The translations under genes and the position numbers were made by a program. The notes below the pieces were generated by a model. It saw nothing but the letters and a program-made list of their open reading frames with translations. It was not told where the DNA came from and did not search any database. Of a stretch of 41,800 nucleotides of DNA, positions 9,490 through 39,903 are shown in pieces (the stretch's first letter is position 1; each line of letters starts with the position of its first letter). Where the stretch lies: sequence record NC_073053.1. One strand, written 5' to 3'. Source of the DNA: Escherichia phage vB_EcoD_Teewinot.

Positions 9490-9520
9490 TAAACCGTATA
9501 TCTAAACAGGAGCGTTCATT

Positions 9521-10246
9521 ATGGGTTATCAACTCCCCAACGGGTCCAGCGTCCAGATTGGGTCCGTACTGGGCAACGGCATCGCTGTTACGGCAGCTAC
9601 CAACGCCGCCGCGTCGATCTCCGACCTTACGCAAGGTTGCGTAATTACCTGCGCGGAGTCTCACGGTCTGGTTGTTGGCGACGTTGTTATGTTCACTAAA
9701 ACCCCGTGGGTCCGTGCGCTGAACCGCGCGTTCATCGTTGGTAAAGTATCGGGGAACGACGTTACACTGGCGCGCTTCGACACCGAAGACGTCACAAAAT
9801 ACCCGACCGGCGCTTTCAGCGTAGGCACTCCGGGCGAAGTGGTGAAGGTGTCGAGCTTTATCGACTTCCCTTTCATTACTAACGTTGCCGTGTCTGGTGG
9901 CGACCAGCAGACGACTACATTCCAGCCGTTGCAGGTGAACACCGCAATCAGTCTGAACACCACGAAAAACCCGTTGGTTCAGACTTACACCTTCACCCAC
10001 GACGAAGAAGACCCGATCCGCCCAATCCTGGAAGACCTGGACGACACACAGAAAACCACTGTGATTAAGTTCACTAACCCGGCAGCGGCAAGCGGCAAAG
10101 GTGAGATCCGTATTTACCCGGCTAAGGTATCTTTCCAGAAGATTCCGTCCGCTGAAGTAAACAACGTGGAAACAGTACAAGCCACTCTGACCATGCAGTC
10201 TGATATGGTTATCTACCGTAAGGATCTTGTCGAGGCATTGTCTTGA
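9521..10246 (+). CDS. major tail protein (putative)
   Basis: 241 aa ORF with AGGAGCG RBS, followed by a strong terminator and then the G/GT chaperone and tape measure genes. Confidence 0.6.
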   Translation: MGYQLPNGSSVQIGSVLGNGIAVTAATNAAASISDLTQGCVITCAESHGLVVGDVVMFTKTPWVRALNRAFIVGKVSGNDVTLARFDTEDVTKYPTGAFSVGTPGEVVKVSSFIDFPFITNVAVSGGDQQTTTFQPLQVNTAISLNTTKNPLVQTYTFTHDEEDPIRPILEDLDDTQKTTVIKFTNPAAASGKGEIRIYPAKVSFQKIPSAEVNNVETVQATLTMQSDMVIYRKDLVEALS

Positions 10247-10276
10247 TTTGGTCGCTTAAATAGCGAGTGATAATAT

Positions 10277-10300
10277 GGGGCCAGCACGGCCCCTTTTTTA
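10277..10300 (+). terminator. rho-independent terminator after the major tail protein gene
   Basis: GGGGCC-agcac-GGCCCC followed by TTTTTTA. Confidence 0.7.
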
Positions 10301-10315
10301 TTGGAGAATACTACA

Positions 10316-10678
10316 ATGGCTAAAGCACCACTCTTTACACTTGACCCTAAGCCAACCTTTAAGCTGCCGATTGAGATCCCGCGCCCTGGCGAGAACGAAC
10401 CGGGCAAGATGACGTTTACCGTCCGCCACCGCCCGATCGACGAATTTTCGCAAACCATGCAGGAAACTGAACGAAAGCTATCGGAATATGACGACAATGA
10501 CCCGGACGGCTTTAACGTTATGGTCGAGGCCATCATGCACGTCGCAGAAGGCTGGAATCTGCCGGACGAATTTAACGCGGAGAACGTCCGCCGCCTGGTG
10601 GTCAACTATCCGCGCGCGTTTGGCGTGTTCCACACGTCGTACTATCTCGAACTGATGGGGTTGCGTGAAAAAAACTAA
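10316..10678 (+). CDS. tail assembly chaperone (G-like)
   Basis: ATG 10316 preceded by GGAGA; 120 aa, acidic; ends at TAA 10676-10678 directly after an A-run slippery site. Confidence 0.6.
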   Translation: MAKAPLFTLDPKPTFKLPIEIPRPGENEPGKMTFTVRHRPIDEFSQTMQETERKLSEYDDNDPDGFNVMVEAIMHVAEGWNLPDEFNAENVRRLVVNYPRAFGVFHTSYYLELMGLREKN

Positions 10679-10992
10679 TTGAGGCGGCGCGACGCTTTTA
10701 TGGCCCGCCGCCACCCTCCGAAGATTTAGCCGCAAGTTTATGGGGTGCGGCCCCCGAAGATGTTTGTCCGCCTGTTGCGCTATGGCCCGACAACGCGAAG
10801 GTAGTCGCAGTCTTCACAGATTGCTCCACGCAATGGCGCACCGGTTTTGGTGGCGCATACGGCATCGACTACGGCGTGCTGGAGTGGTTATTTAAGATGC
10901 ACGGTATCGAAAACGAGCAGCGCGCGTTTAAAGATATCAAGCTAATGGAGCGAATCGCGCTTGATGAGATGGCGCAGCAGAACCCCGCATAA
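10316..10992 (+). CDS. tail assembly chaperone GT-like fusion made by -1 programmed frameshift
   Basis: The -1 frame is open with no stop from 10675 to TAA 10990-10992 (hand-translated: LIEAARRFYGPPPPSEDLAASLWGAAPEDVCPPVALWPDNAKVVAVFTDCSTQWRTGFGGAYGIDYGVLEWLFKMHGIENEQRAFKDIKLMERIALDEMAQQNPA). It has no ATG of its own. Slippery heptamer A AAA AAC lies at 10669-10675. Confidence 0.55.
10669..10675 (+). promoter_or_regulatory. -1 ribosomal frameshift slippery heptamer (A AAA AAC)
   Basis: X XXY YYZ heptamer in the last codons of the G-like ORF; the downstream -1 frame is open for about 105 codons. Confidence 0.5.
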
Positions 10993-11135
10993 TGAAGCGG
11001 GACAGGCGGGACGTCCCGTTTTGTCCCGCCTCTGTAAAACTGCATATCTACTCACTTCCACTGCATAAACTCAAAACGGGACAAGCGGGACGTCCCGCTT
11101 TGTCCCGCCCTGTAAATGTGCATACCTATGCAGTT
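10993..11135. repeat. pair of 30-bp GGGAC palindromes with TGCATA-containing spacers
   Basis: Two near-identical imperfect palindromes CGGGACAAGCGGGACGTCCCGCTTTGTCCCGCC around 11003-11040 and 11084-11120, each centred on GGGACGTCCC, separated by CTGTAAA(N)TGCATA-type repeats. Confidence 0.7.
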
Positions 11136-11139
11136 TTAT

Positions 11140-11313
11140 TGCATAAAGTAAGCGGGACAAAAAGCGGGACAAACAAGGGGCGGGACAAAGCGGGACAGCA
11201 CCCCGTCCCCGCCAGTGCTGCCGCGGTTTTCAGCCGATCGGGACAGCGGGACAGCACCCCAGTCTTTCAGACTAGACGGGGGTCAATGGCCCCCCTCGTC
11301 TGAGACTGAATAA
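11140..11313. repeat. 174-bp GCGGGACA-array element, copy A
   Basis: Four tandem GCGGGACA units spaced about one helical turn apart, a variable centre, two more GGGACAG units, then a long imperfect hairpin (AGACGGGGG...CCCCCCTCGTCT). Near-identical copy at 37996-38169. Confidence 0.8.
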
Positions 11314-11331
11314 GGTTTGTTTTGAAATCGC

Positions 11332-11340
11332 TGATACAAT
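11332..11340 (+). promoter_or_regulatory. extended -10 promoter element upstream of the tape measure gene
   Basis: TGaTACAAT at 11332-11340; no good -35. Low confidence. Confidence 0.25.
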
Positions 11341-11376
11341 ATCCATCGGCAACTGCATAAAAAAGGGGACTGCATA

Positions 11377-14019
11377 ATGGCAGGTCAGGCAGCAGGCATC
11401 ACGCTAAAGGCTGATGTTGCACAAATCAGAACGGCAAATACTGTGCTGGACTCCTTCGCACAGAAATCCGAGAACACAGAAAACAAGGTTAAGAAATTAA
11501 ACGACACCCTCGGCAAATCCAAAAAGGTGACGAGTGACGCCGCGGGCGGAATGGAAAAGCTGGCAAACGAATCGCAGCGCGCCGCCGATGGCATGACGAA
11601 ACAGGAGCGACTCGCCAACAGGTTAGGCATGTCGACTAAAAACTTGGGCTTTGCCTCGCGTAACGCCGCATTCCAGTTACAGGATATCGCAGTTACGCTT
11701 GAGATGGGGATGCCGGTACACCGCGTTATGCTTCAGCAGTTACCGCAGCTAACTGGGGCGTTCGGTGGATTGGGTAACACTCTGCGTTATGTTGCTGGCT
11801 TCCTCGGTCCAGTTGGGATCGGCCTTGCTGCGGTAACGGCAACGTTAGGCGTGGGCGTAGCAATTACGTCCCGCGCAGAGAACCAGGTCGCAGCGCTTAA
11901 CAAGACGCTGGCGCTGTCAGGTAACATTTCCGGCCTAACGGCAAACCAGATCCTGGTGCTATCCGAGAACGCCGAGCGCATGGGCGGGTCGTTCCGCAAG
12001 ACGCGTGACACAATCCAGGCGCTGGCGGCGGCGGGTGTGAAAGCGGGGGCGGACTTCGGCCCGCTGGCGAAGGTTGTGAATGACTTCGCGAAGGCGTCTA
12101 ATCAGCCGATCCCTGACGTGGTTGAATCCATCTCAAAATTGTCGAACGACCCAGTGGGCGGACTGCGTGCGCTGGCGGATAAGTATCATGTCGTTACCGA
12201 GGCGCAGATCCAGCAGGTGCAATCGCTTGTAGATATGGGGCGTGAAACGGACGCGGTTGCTCTGGCTAACAAAACAGCCGCTGCGTCGTTCTCCAGCATG
12301 ACCGATGAGGTAAAGTCCAACATGGGTACGCTTGAGCGGTCGATGAACGTAGTTACATCGGCAGCTAAATCTATGTGGGATGCCATCCTGGATGTGGGCC
12401 GCGCGCAGTCCTCGAATGAGTCCGAGATGAAAGCGCGTGAGTCCTTGCAGCGCATGACCACGGCGTACTATGCCGAGATGAGGGCGGTAAACGCTGCCGG
12501 TGGGGTAATGACCGAAGCGCAGAAAGCGCGTATTAACATGCTTTACAGCGAACTGGTCGCCCAGGAAAAGGTAGTAGCGTCGCTCACCCTTCGCAACCGT
12601 GCCGAGCGAGACAGCGCCAGCGCCGCGGATGAAGCAGCAAAGGCGAACGAGGAGGCAAACCGCGCCGCCCGCGACCGCTCCGCGTTTGAGAAGGAGTACG
12701 CAACCAACGCGAAGCGGCGAGCCGACGAGATCGCCCGCCTAAATTTGCTGAATAAGCGCGGTGTTATTAACGAGAAAGAACTAGCCGAGGCGGTGAAGCA
12801 GGTCAACGAGCGTTACAAAGACCCCGCGCCGAAGAAAGCGGAGGCAGTTCGAGTCGATGCCGGGCTGAAAATGCTGGAAGTCGCGCGAAGCGAATTAGCC
12901 CAGCTTCGTGAGTCTGGAAAGCAGATCGAAGCCAACGCATCGACGCAGACCCGCACGCAACGCGCGCAAGCGTCCCTGAACAAGCTGATTGCCGATAATG
13001 AGCAGTTAATCACCGCGAGCAAGGAGCGCGCACTCACGGCAGCAGAAAAGCAGCAAACGGCGGCGTTCGAGGCGGTTAAATCGGTACGCGAGCAGATCGT
13101 CGAAGAAGCCAAATTGCTGGACGCGAAAGAGAAGCAGATCAAAGCACACGCCCAGGTCGATGCATTCATCAAGAACCAGAACGCCGAGCTAAAAGCCACC
13201 GCGGCGGGATATGCGCTTTCCACTCGCGAAGCGGCTAACCTGCGCGAAGAATTGCAGCTAATTGATCGCCTGAAGCGGGTGGGCGCTAACGATACCGATA
13301 TTGATCTGGCGGTGTCTAAGCTGCGCGAAGTGCAGGAAGCACAGACCGGTGCTAACGCCTCGCTATGGGATGGCTTCAGCCGCGGGCTTAAGGATAGTGT
13401 TGATGAAATGGGTAACGGCTATACGCAGATGACGTCACTCACAAAATTCACGTTCGGCGCTATGCAGGACACGATGAACGAGTTTTTCGAGACTGGCAAG
13501 CTGAACGCAAAAGATATGGTTAAGTCCATTCTGAGCGAATTAATAAAGCTGGCTACCTCGCAGGCGTTCAAGTCCATCGTTAGCGCTTTCGGCGGTGACG
13601 GCGGCAAAAACGGATTGTTCGGCGCTATTTTCTCCGGCCTCACTAAGAATGCGGACGGCGGAGCGTACGCAGGGGGCAACCTCGCGGCCTATTCGGGGCA
13701 AGTGGTAAGCCAGCCCACCTTTTTCAGTTATGGCGTCCAGGCGTTCGCTAAGGGCGCAGGATTGATGGGGGAGGCTGGCCCCGAGGCCATCATGCCGCTT
13801 AAGCGCGGGCCAGACGGTAAACTTGGCGTTGCCGCGGCAGGCGGTGTCGGGGGAATGATTGTAACGACCAACGTTAACATGGGGACCGGTAAGACGGATA
13901 CCAGTGTTAGCGGTCCAGACCCGCGCACCGCGCAGGCGTTCGGAAAGCAAATCACCGAGTCGGTCAAGGCCGAGATCGTGAAGGCGACGAAACCGGGTGG
14001 TGTACTTTACAAACGATGA
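11377..14019 (+). CDS. tail tape measure protein
   Basis: 880 aa, long helical A/Q/K/E-rich protein with glycine-rich C-terminal part, AAGGGGA RBS; located after the G/GT chaperone and before the tail tip genes. Confidence 0.85.
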   Translation: MAGQAAGITLKADVAQIRTANTVLDSFAQKSENTENKVKKLNDTLGKSKKVTSDAAGGMEKLANESQRAADGMTKQERLANRLGMSTKNLGFASRNAAFQLQDIAVTLEMGMPVHRVMLQQLPQLTGAFGGLGNTLRYVAGFLGPVGIGLAAVTATLGVGVAITSRAENQVAALNKTLALSGNISGLTANQILVLSENAERMGGSFRKTRDTIQALAAAGVKAGADFGPLAKVVNDFAKASNQPIPDVVESISKLSNDPVGGLRALADKYHVVTEAQIQQVQSLVDMGRETDAVALANKTAAASFSSMTDEVKSNMGTLERSMNVVTSAAKSMWDAILDVGRAQSSNESEMKARESLQRMTTAYYAEMRAVNAAGGVMTEAQKARINMLYSELVAQEKVVASLTLRNRAERDSASAADEAAKANEEANRAARDRSAFEKEYATNAKRRADEIARLNLLNKRGVINEKELAEAVKQVNERYKDPAPKKAEAVRVDAGLKMLEVARSELAQLRESGKQIEANASTQTRTQRAQASLNKLIADNEQLITASKERALTAAEKQQTAAFEAVKSVREQIVEEAKLLDAKEKQIKAHAQVDAFIKNQNAELKATAAGYALSTREAANLREELQLIDRLKRVGANDTDIDLAVSKLREVQEAQTGANASLWDGFSRGLKDSVDEMGNGYTQMTSLTKFTFGAMQDTMNEFFETGKLNAKDMVKSILSELIKLATSQAFKSIVSAFGGDGGKNGLFGAIFSGLTKNADGGAYAGGNLAAYSGQVVSQPTFFSYGVQAFAKGAGLMGEAGPEAIMPLKRGPDGKLGVAAAGGVGGMIVTTNVNMGTGKTDTSVSGPDPRTAQAFGKQITESVKAEIVKATKPGGVLYKR

Positions 14020-37648: not shown

Positions 37649-37960
37649 ATTTTGCGCGCATTGGGAATTCCCATATCGCTAAAGATTAAATTTTGCGCGC
37701 ATTGGTTGCCATTTTGGGAATTCCCATATCGCTAAAGATTAAATTTTGCGCGCATTGGTTGCCGATATGGGAATTCCCATATCGCTAAAGATTAAATTTT
37801 GCGCGCATTGGTTGCCATTTTGGGAATTCCCATATCGCTAAAGATTAAATTTTGCGCGTATTGGTTGCCATTTTGGGAATTCCCATATCGCTAAAGATTA
37901 AATTTTGCGCGTATTGGTTGCCATTTTGGGTGTTTTTAACTGGTCGTATTGGTTGCCGTG
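37640..37960. repeat. iteron array, about six tandem 53-bp repeats (candidate origin of replication)
   Basis: Unit AAAGATTAAATTTTGCGCGCATTGGTTGCCATTTTGGGAATTCCCATATCGCT at 37681, 37734, 37787, 37840, a 41-bp first copy at 37640 (12-bp deletion) and a degenerate sixth; each has the palindrome TGGGAATTCCCA, extended to GATATGGGAATTCCCATATC in the third copy. Starts in the last codons of the primase-helicase gene. Confidence 0.75.
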
Positions 37961-37995
37961 TAGGGTGATTATTATGAATAGTTATGCAATAAAAC

Positions 37996-38169
37996 TGCAT
38001 AAAGTAAGCGGGACAAAAAGCGGGACAAACAAGGGGCGGGACAAAGCGGGACAGCACCCCCGTCCCGCCCCGGATGGCGCGGCTTTCAGAGGAGCGGGAC
38101 AGCGGGACAGCACCCCAGTCTTTCAGACTAGACGGGGGTCAGTGGCCCCCCTCGTCTGAGACTGAATAA
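37996..38169. repeat. 174-bp GCGGGACA-array element, copy B
   Basis: Same length as copy A (11140-11313); identical over the first 60-odd bp and the last 70-odd bp except one A/G difference, with a diverged roughly 40-bp centre. Confidence 0.8.
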
Positions 38170-38307
38170 AATCCCAATACACGGCAGCATAGTGAAAATT
38201 GCGTCGAGGGTAGAACTCGGCAACCAATGCGGGTTGGATAATGGAGAGTGGGAAATGCAGCCACCGCGGATAGCGATCAACTTTTTCATGCGCATGATTA
38301 ATATTGG

Positions 38308-39336: not shown

Positions 39337-39371
39337 GTCCCAGTGAGCTAAAACTTACTGGGACTTTTTTA
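39337..39371 (+). terminator. terminator abutting the holin start codon
   Basis: AGTCCCAGT-12 nt loop-ACTGGGACT followed by TTTTTT, then ATG 39371 immediately. Confidence 0.55.
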
Positions 39372-39661
39372 TGGATAAGCTAAACGAGTGGTTATTCGCC
39401 CTTGCGTGTCTTGCTGGTGGCTTCGTGGGCGCACGCATTCACGGCGAGGCAACGAAAGGGCCGTTGAACTTCGTTTTATATGTCGTAGTTGGCTTCCTGT
39501 GCGCCATATTTGGTGCGCCAGCCATTGCCGAGTGGTCTGGTTTGTCTGGCGAGCGCACTGTCGCCGGTTTGGGCTTCGTAACTGCAATCTTCTGGATGCC
39601 AATAGCCGCCCGGATCAGGGAGACTATTGAGTCGTTCCGACTTCCGGGGGGCGCAAAATGA
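39371..39661 (+). CDS. holin (putative, three TM helices)
   Basis: 96 aa with three hydrophobic helices (WLFALACLAGGFVGA; LNFVLYVVVGFLCAIFGAPAI; VAGLGFVTAIFWMPIAA) and a charged C-terminus; two genes upstream of the endolysin. Confidence 0.55.
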   Translation: MDKLNEWLFALACLAGGFVGARIHGEATKGPLNFVLYVVVGFLCAIFGAPAIAEWSGLSGERTVAGLGFVTAIFWMPIAARIRETIESFRLPGGAK

Positions 39662-39903
39662 TTATCTCCGTCCTGTTGTTTGTTATCATAGGGGCTTCGT
39701 CCCTGTTTAACGTGTATGCGCCGTCCGTCCAGGATGGCATTTTAGGCCGGGTGTTATATCTGCTAACGGCGATGATCTGCGTTATCGGATTGTTGCAAAC
39801 AGGAGACGTATCTGACACCACCTGGACCGCGTTAATCTGGTTGTTTGCATTGCGCACGCTGCGTAATGCTGTTTTGAATGGGGTAAAACATGCGATTCAG
39901 TGA
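39658..39903 (+). CDS. second holin-like membrane protein (holin/antiholin partner?)
   Basis: 81 aa with two to three TM helices, GGGGGG RBS, overlapping start/stop codons with its neighbours. Confidence 0.5.
   Translation: MIISVLLFVIIGASSLFNVYAPSVQDGILGRVLYLLTAMICVIGLLQTGDVSDTTWTALIWLFALRTLRNAVLNGVKHAIQ

Follow-up and report, generated by a model that had tools for sequence, protein, structure and literature searches.

A probable programmed −1 frameshift between the G and T frames of the Dhillonvirus tail assembly chaperone

How does Escherichia phage vB_EcoD_Teewinot translate the open frame, here called T, that begins where its tail assembly chaperone gene, G, ends and that has no start codon near its beginning? 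An earlier note, made from the letters of the sequence, had read the two frames as a G/GT pair upstream of a tape measure gene, joined by a programmed −1 frameshift. We followed up this reading in the whole stretch of DNA analyzed (41,800 nt of NC_073053.1, hereafter the window) and in its relatives, and we put the probability at about 0.9 that G and T of Dhillonvirus are decoded as in phage lambda, with a programmed −1 ribosomal frameshift yielding a GT fusion. The G/GT frameshift in the lambda and HK97 chaperone genes is described by Levin (1993) and by Xu, Hendrix and Duda (2004, 2013, 2014), as cited in PMC5009743.

Anatomy of the G/T locus

The locus lies in a stretch (9500–11400) that is 98.6% identical to Escherichia phage vB_EcoD_Pubbukkers and matches 157 phage records, nearly all of them from the genus Dhillonvirus (HK578/SO-1 group) and infecting E. 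coli or Shigella. On the plus strand, which carries every feature of the locus, the order is tube gene, terminator-like hairpin, G, T and tape measure gene. The tail tube (major tail) protein gene (9521–10246; Pfam Phage_tail_3, E = 3.2e-33) stands directly 5′ of G, and its counterpart in relatives is annotated as a major tail or tail tube protein. A consensus scan placed a terminator-like hairpin, GGGGCC-AGCAC-GGCCCC followed by TTTTTT, between this gene and G, at 10277–10299; Rfam returned zero family matches anywhere in the 41,800-nt window. A Shine–Dalgarno sequence read from the sequence, GGAG (10303–10306), precedes the ATG of G by 9 nt. Standard decoding of G (10316–10678) gives a tail assembly (tape measure) chaperone of 120 aa that matches Pfam Phage_TAC_4 (PF08748) over the full profile (1–124 of 124; E = 8.7e-24; 84.5 bits against a cut-off of 21.1) and falls in PHROG 569/17368, category tail. 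The tape measure protein gene follows 3′ of G/GT at 11377–14019 (Pfam TMP_2, E = 1.8e-44; Tape_meas_lam_C, E = 7.6e-14). G and T thus stand where Xu, Hendrix and Duda (2004) look for such pairs, as two ORFs flanked by the major tail and tape measure genes.

In the 0 frame, the 3′ end of G reads TTG CGT GAA AAA AAC TAA. The earlier note had the ORF ending straight after A AAA AAC, and base by base this is so: the slippery heptamer A_AAA_AAC occupies 10669–10675, in X_XXY_YYZ phase with the G frame, and the G stop TAA, a candidate part of the recoding signal, abuts it at 10676–10678 with a spacer of 0 nt. The −1 frame is closed two codons 5′ of the heptamer, so that the heptamer is the sole possible shift window; A_AAA_AAC is accordingly the in-phase slippery sequence within the overlap that Xu, Hendrix and Duda (2004) look for. 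From CTA at 10675 the −1 frame runs through exactly 105 sense codons (10675–10989) to a TAA at 10990–10992, in agreement with the roughly 105 startless codons, open to 10992, that had been claimed for it. Its earliest ATG, GTG or TTG is a GTG at codon 68 of 105, and the ORF list of the window holds no plus-strand ORF of at least 40 aa ending at 10992. T (10675–10992) overlaps the end of G in the −1 frame with neither a start nor a ribosome binding site of its own, another of the marks named by Xu, Hendrix and Duda (2004).

A heptamer followed by an open −1 frame is, taken alone, not especially rare by chance. Two of the 126 ORFs of at least 80 aa in the window carry a phased heptamer in their last 20 codons together with at least 80 open −1 codons. 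The second of them, ORF 39371–39661 with GGGGGGC at 39646, is an ordinary ATGA overlap in which the next gene has its own ATG, and it was set aside. What lifts the G/T case above chance is the missing start codon, a Pfam domain in the extension and conservation in relatives.

In the proposed decoding, most ribosomes would translate G and terminate at its TAA, releasing the 120-aa chaperone. A minor fraction would move one base back on A_AAA_AAC, with tRNA-Lys leaving one AAA for another and tRNA-Asn leaving AAC for AAA, bypass the stop and continue into CTA ATT GAG... This would give a GT protein, join(10316..10675,10675..10992), of a predicted 225 aa, whose C-terminal 105 residues contain a DUF1799 domain. 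The junction peptide of the earlier note, REK-K/L-IEAARR, stands in its flanks and is corrected at its center: with tandem slippage Asn would be decoded before the slip, giving ...REKN-LIEAARR..., and ...REKK-LIEAARR... would be expected solely from a slip confined to the P site or from insertion of an A during transcription. For lambda, PMC5009743 reports, after Xu, Hendrix and Duda, that G binds the tape measure protein, that T recruits the tube protein and that neither is in the virion. By analogy with gpG/gpGT, the G part of the Teewinot protein would bind the tape measure protein, the T part would recruit the tube protein, and neither G nor GT would be present in the virion.

Coding constraint and fold of the T frame

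The comparison drew on 17 distinct Dhillonvirus sequences, made up of the window, three GenBank matches, six IMG/VR contigs and seven GenBank records picked for divergence. None has an indel in the 678 nt that begin with the start codon of G and end with the stop of T. Variable sites fall at codon positions 1/2/3 in the proportion 9/6/75 in G and, counted in the −1 frame, 16/7/66 in T (chi-square p = 1.6e-15). The bias is already present in the first 67 codons of T, where no start could serve (8/2/41, p = 5e-12). Such a pattern indicates that purifying selection acts on the −1 frame of T, beginning at the slip site. All 17 sequences have the same heptamer and stop, and the heptamer is unchanged in all 19 Dhillonvirus loci examined. 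In an 18th sequence, that of phage rolling, TGA replaces TAA, a change that keeps both the G stop and the Leu of the T frame (CTA to CTG).

T also holds a complete protein domain. DUF1799 (PF08809) covers T residues 23–99 (10741–10971) with the profile complete (1–80 of 80; E = 2.7e-21; 76 bits against a cut-off of 26), and it begins 45 codons 5′ of the earliest possible start codon. Both the G and T parts fall in PHROGs of category 'tail', and PHROG 17368 (profile length 213) aligns with G over its first half and with T over its last third; a family spanning G and T implies that some fused or joined entries exist, one of them from Serratia phage Scapp. Searches with T retrieved 1113 cluster representatives at E ≤ 0.001.

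An AlphaFold2 model of T, built with 56 homologues, has a mean pLDDT of 79.7. Residues 1–37 are of lower confidence (pLDDT 53–68), and the core (residues ~38–102; pLDDT >88) is predicted to form a helix, a beta-hairpin and then two helices, with the invariant TQWR and DY motifs on the beta-hairpin. The best fold matches in BFVD bear the name 'Tape measure chaperone'; the top one is from Serratia phage Scapp (236 aa; TMq 0.79; E = 1.6e-6), and others come from Klebsiella phage Solomon (210 aa) and Enterobacter phage F20. The PDB gave no fold match for the T model and no sequence match for GT.

These results bear on the possibility that the −1 ORF is not expressed at all and is a decaying or accidental open frame 3′ of G, as its lack of a start codon of its own might suggest. 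A chance or decaying frame would have to accommodate the third-position bias and the zero indels in 17 sequences, a full-length Pfam domain with over a thousand related clusters and a confident predicted fold. The substitution pattern effectively refutes it, and we give it almost no credence.

A protein search with the 225-aa GT found three matches, none of them a fused homologue. With T alone, the best 150 of the 1113 cluster representatives are stand-alone ORFs of 38–150 aa with no in-frame G–T fusion, and their predicted starts are scattered from query residue 1 to 68. This scatter is relevant to a second alternative, in which T is translated separately by initiation or reinitiation, either at a near-cognate codon at the junction (ATT, 10678–10680) or at the GTG of codon 68. 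A product begun at that GTG would be missing both invariant motifs, TQWR and DY, as well as half of the high-confidence core. In favor of the junction start, two GenBank records (SO-1 gp16 and HK578_016) give a CDS from the ATT that overlaps the G stop, and PGAP proteins of prophage relatives begin at a junction CTG, ATC or ATT. No Shine–Dalgarno sequence stands at a usable distance before 10678, however.

The slip site in distant relatives

T used as a tblastn query hit 1156 phage records, of which 999 fall at <60% identity, among T1-like Drexlerviridae, Klebsiella, Ralstonia, Cronobacter and Pseudomonas phages and others. In SRT8, JLBYU26, phiES15 and Dina, homology to T starts at the very base where G stops, and G ends in GTA AAA AAC TAA (SRT8, JLBYU26), GAA AAA AAC TAA (phiES15) or CGG GGA AAC TGA (Ralstonia phage Dina). 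The T alignment, used as a query, retrieved 80 viral contigs and 13 bacterial genome loci, and its invariant residues begin at L1. The resulting set of 109 loci comprises 95 distinct junctions with T identities of 28–48%, drawn from T1-like Drexlerviridae, enterobacterial prophages, Ralstonia phages, beta- and alpha-proteobacterial contigs and one Tessaracoccus contig.

Every one of these junctions carries a slippery heptamer in the same phase and place: A_AAA_AAC in 86/95 and G_GGA_AAC in 9/95. A 0-frame stop follows directly in 93/95 (TGA 62, TAA 29, TAG 2). The first T codon is Leu throughout (CTG in 62 junctions, CTA in 31), homology to T sets in at this codon, and the second codon is Ile (ATN) in 74/95. 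The comparison of slippery sites across related phages that the earlier note had proposed as a check therefore favors the frameshift, with a phased heptamer in 95/95 junctions and a conserved −1 frame; the G/GT arrangement upstream of a tape measure gene that it had claimed is borne out by position, domains, selection and the conserved heptamer. Conservation of both the arrangement and the slippery site in relatives is also what Xu, Hendrix and Duda (2004) expect of a genuine pair.

The frequent CTG and ATN codons at the start of T are at the same time what separate initiation would use. Yet T1-like relatives read CTA AAG here, with no near-cognate start, and still keep the heptamer and stop, and reinitiation leaves the phased X_XXA_AAC heptamer of all 95 junctions unexplained. 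The annotated ATT, CTG and ATC starts look driven by homology, given the missing Shine–Dalgarno sequence, the CTA AAG of the T1-like phages and the scattered ORF starts. Independent translation of T is, in our judgment, very unlikely.

The same junctions speak to a third explanation, that RNA polymerase slips on the A7 run (10668–10674) and inserts an extra A, placing T in the frame that a −1 ribosomal shift would reach and producing the junction REKK-LIEAARR. A run of seven A is present in 86/95 junctions. Bacterial transcriptional slippage sites usually need about nine or more A/T. In nine junctions, moreover, the sequence is G_GGA_AAC, which has only 3–4 identical bases in a row and is a ribosomal heptamer at the same place and phase, and Scapp has GAA AAG at this position. 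What is conserved is the phased X_XXY_YYZ pattern and not the length of a homopolymer; the exchange for G_GGA_AAC in particular argues for ribosomal over transcriptional slippage. We regard slippage by the polymerase as highly improbable and return to ribosomal frameshifting in what follows.

Known frameshift pairs and the strength of the signal

Like Teewinot, lambda (gpG/gpGT) and HK97 (gp13/GT) have overlapping ORFs between the major tail and tape measure genes, with a startless second ORF in the −1 frame, a slippery site at the end of G and similar sizes (~120 + 105 aa). HK97 shares a further feature, a putative terminator annotated 5′ of the G gene in the same relative place. The slippery sites differ. 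That of lambda is G_GGA_AAG. HK97 reads CGG GAA AAG, and its G stop lies six codons downstream, whereas the Teewinot heptamer ends in AAC and abuts the stop. The protein families differ as well: G and T are Phage_TAC_1 and Phage_tail_T in HK97 but Phage_TAC_4 and DUF1799 in Teewinot, and hhalign comparisons of the G and T family profiles with HK97 G and T gave probabilities of ≤0.5%, that is, no homology. The Teewinot pair appears to work like lambda G/GT, yet it is outside the lambda/HK97 sequence families. Because homology to the proven lambda and HK97 families is not detectable, the functional assignment rests on position, architecture and database names. The lack of homology fits the published statement that the G/GT arrangement is conserved despite low sequence similarity.

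Closer comparisons come from other phages. In Serratia phage Scapp (MH553517, CPT_Scapp_029/030), G is likewise Phage_TAC_4 (E = 2.8e-20) and lies before the tape measure gene, and the record contains a joined CDS of 236 aa, 'Tape Measure Chaperone Frameshift Product', which is an annotation with no experiment cited. Its junction, CGT GAA AAG TAT TAA, has an A_AAG-type site, and the stop comes one codon later than in Teewinot. Annotators have thus already inferred a frameshift for one Phage_TAC_4 member, with a different slip motif. Among T1-like Drexlerviridae, the SRT8 gp18/gp17 pair and the JLBYU26 'tape measure chaperone' pair share with Teewinot A_AAA_AAC and an immediate stop; their T parts are homologous to Teewinot T at a low identity of 33–36%, and both pairs are annotated as two CDSs. 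Acinetobacter phage Loki gp12/gp13, another pair used for comparison, is likewise annotated as two separate CDSs. Literature searches found no report of a fusion protein detected for Teewinot or for any Phage_TAC_4/DUF1799 pair, and nothing relevant on frameshifting in Dhillonvirus/HK578.

The same A_AAA_AAC heptamer also occurs outside tail genes, in IS1 insA-insB′; that is a transposase gene, and the parallel speaks only to the function of the heptamer in E. coli. The heptamer of insA-insB′ is not known to have an abutting stop codon.

How efficient might the Teewinot site be? In E. coli, IS1 has A_AAA_AAC as its proven −1 site, which acts there at low efficiency with no established stimulator (PMC4066793). 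In E. coli reporters (PMC4066793, supplement), A_AAA_AAC shifted at 0.163% with no stimulator, 0.189% with the IS911 signals and 0.739% with the IS3 pseudoknot, and G_GGA_AAC at 0.164%, 0.222% and 0.888%, respectively; A_AAA_AAG gave 0.29%, 4.3% and 39%. The like values mean that A_AAA_AAC is interchangeable in strength with G_GGA_AAC, both being low. They also fall, for A_AAA_AAC (0.16–0.74%), below the GT:G molar ratio of ~1:30 given for lambda in PMC5009743, which counts against the frameshift reading. By the measure of the bare heptamer, GT would be made at low efficiency, and the abutting stop and a GC hairpin 7 nt downstream may perhaps raise it.

This candidate stimulatory hairpin (10683–10712) begins 7 nt 3′ of the heptamer and pairs GGCGGCG (10683–10689) with CGCCGCC (10706–10712) in a 7-bp, all-GC stem. 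At −17.1 kcal/mol it barely surpasses shuffled sequence (z = −1.86 in the local 45 nt; 10 of 200 shuffles fold equally well), and the fold of the 100 nt downstream is not significant in the window (z = −1.28). Among synonymous third positions in the 17 Dhillonvirus sequences, 0/5 are variable in the arms and 4/5 in the loop (Fisher one-sided p = 0.024, hand-calculated). SRT8 and JLBYU26 also have a GC hairpin 4–7 nt 3′ of the heptamer, with z = −5.1 in SRT8. Some other distant relatives have comparable GC hairpins, but the large group of enterobacterial prophages lacks them, and z averages −0.84 across 86 junctions, so hairpins are specific to lineages and do not amount to a family-wide downstream stimulator. 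The Teewinot hairpin could at best be a lineage-specific stimulator. As for an upstream stimulator, a Shine–Dalgarno-like motif was found 6–20 nt 5′ in 35/95 junctions, against 1–20 in control windows; it mostly reflects a conserved Gly codon and was rejected.

It is conceivable, if doubtful, that in Phage_TAC_4/DUF1799 chaperones the recoding signal requires the abutting stop, making it a '−1 shifty stop'. A release factor slow to read the stop would then leave the Lys and Asn tRNAs long enough to re-pair in the −1 frame. If so, termination would compete with the shift and thereby fix the GT:G ratio, tying it to release-factor activity and not to downstream RNA structure. In the 31 junctions where T begins with CTA, the immediate stop is achieved with a rare codon, CTA being a rare Leu codon in E. 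coli.

The frameshift reading adds little that is new in principle, since a G/GT frameshift is expected in almost every long-tailed phage. Its notable point is that an ...AAC heptamer, weak in E. coli, is paired near-invariantly (93/95) with an abutting stop. It would also correct the annotation of the whole genus Dhillonvirus. A search matched 155 phage records, nearly all Dhillonvirus, and in 60 records tabulated across the identity range the T region is labeled 'hypothetical protein', 'DUF1799 domain-containing protein', mislabeled 'major tail protein' or given no label; a chaperone product over T appears in 0/60. None of the 14 Dhillonvirus records that we examined has a joined G–T CDS. 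There T is left empty or is filled with fragments of 31–81 aa, antisense ORFs or a CDS with an ATT start, and a spurious antisense ORF crosses T in SECphi18 gp34 and Ioannina. The description of the arrangement as invisible to ORF callers, made in the earlier note, is apt for these records, with their fragments, forced ATT starts and missing joined CDS. PGAP treats bacterial prophage homologues of T in a similar way, naming them 'DUF1799 domain-containing protein' and forcing non-canonical starts. DUF1799 itself would gain a probable function, that of T domain in a tail assembly chaperone; the one paper found on DUF1799 lists it as a separate protein.

Position of the stop at the slip site

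The first codon of T, the −1 frame extension of the tail assembly chaperone gene G, is CTA in Teewinot (10675-10677), and it is this CTA that generates the TAA stop of G. CTA is a rare leucine codon in E. coli. Family-wide, it is the first T codon in 31 of 95 distinct junctions, and CTT is limited to the two junctions without an abutting stop. This pattern of first-codon usage suggests that selection acts on the presence of a stop at an exact position, and not on one particular Leu codon. Three relatives depart from the arrangement of a heptamer with an immediate stop: among the viral and genome contigs, L070 has G_GGA_AAC, then three sense codons before the stop; in a second contig, L100, the 0-frame stop lies about 30 codons downstream of A_AAA_AAC; and Serratia phage Scapp (L111 16530-16545) reads GAA AAG TAT TAA, an A_AAG-type site. 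Thus, judging from these sequences, a stop abutting the heptamer is not an absolute requirement in the Phage_TAC_4/DUF1799 family.

Among the relatives, the RefSeq record of phage vB_EcoS_L-h 1M (L102, NC_073086.1) contains numerous N bases near the junction, its CDS coordinates appear offset with respect to the sequence, and its ‘major tail protein’ covers the T region. These oddities probably reflect a problem of record quality, not biology.

Other open frames

Three mechanically called ORFs overlap T or the repeats that follow it: a 103-aa ORF in the repeat region (10992-11303, + strand), for which a Pfam search gave no match; a 55-aa ORF antisense to T (10698-10865, − strand); and a 58-aa ORF (10869-11045, − strand). 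The 55-aa antisense ORF is listed as a ‘hypothetical protein’ in the SECphi18 and Ioannina records, but the substitution pattern agrees with the + strand frame of T. All three ORFs are probably spurious.

Elsewhere in the window, a 96-aa ORF (39371-39661) carries G_GGG_GGC four codons upstream of its stop, with 83 open codons in the −1 frame. It was rejected as a recoding site because that open frame is simply the next gene (39658-39903), which starts at an ATG of its own within an ATGA overlap.

Hairpin and repeats flanking the chaperone genes

A terminator-like hairpin (10277-10299; GGGGCC AGCAC GGCCCC followed by TTTTTT) separates the tail tube gene from G, and in HK97 a putative terminator occupies the equivalent position. 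The hairpin may keep the chaperone and tape measure genes expressed at a lower level than the tube protein.

The 384-nt gap from the T stop to the tape measure ATG (10993-11376) is densely packed with repeats. It holds 11 copies of GCGGGAC, counting both orientations (23 in the window vs. 8.5 ± 3.2 expected), together with the palindromes GCGGGACGTCCCGC, 36-38-nt direct repeats at a spacing of 78-79 nt, and CTGCATAA motifs. The gap varies more than the genes on either side of it, with differences at 117 of 384 positions across 10 genomes, and the HK578 record places a rho-independent terminator at the first palindrome. The region is a candidate origin, protein-binding-site array, or terminator/promoter cassette. 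About 175 nt of the gap repeat (11140-11315) occur again at 37996-38170, within the stretch 37850-38170 and downstream of a 754-aa ORF, with ~92% identity; this copy adds seven further GCGGGAC, and beside it TTTTGCGCGTATTGGTTGCCATTTTGGG is repeated two and a half times. Both repeat regions are named in the SO-1 GenBank record, as ‘region A’ and ‘region B’.
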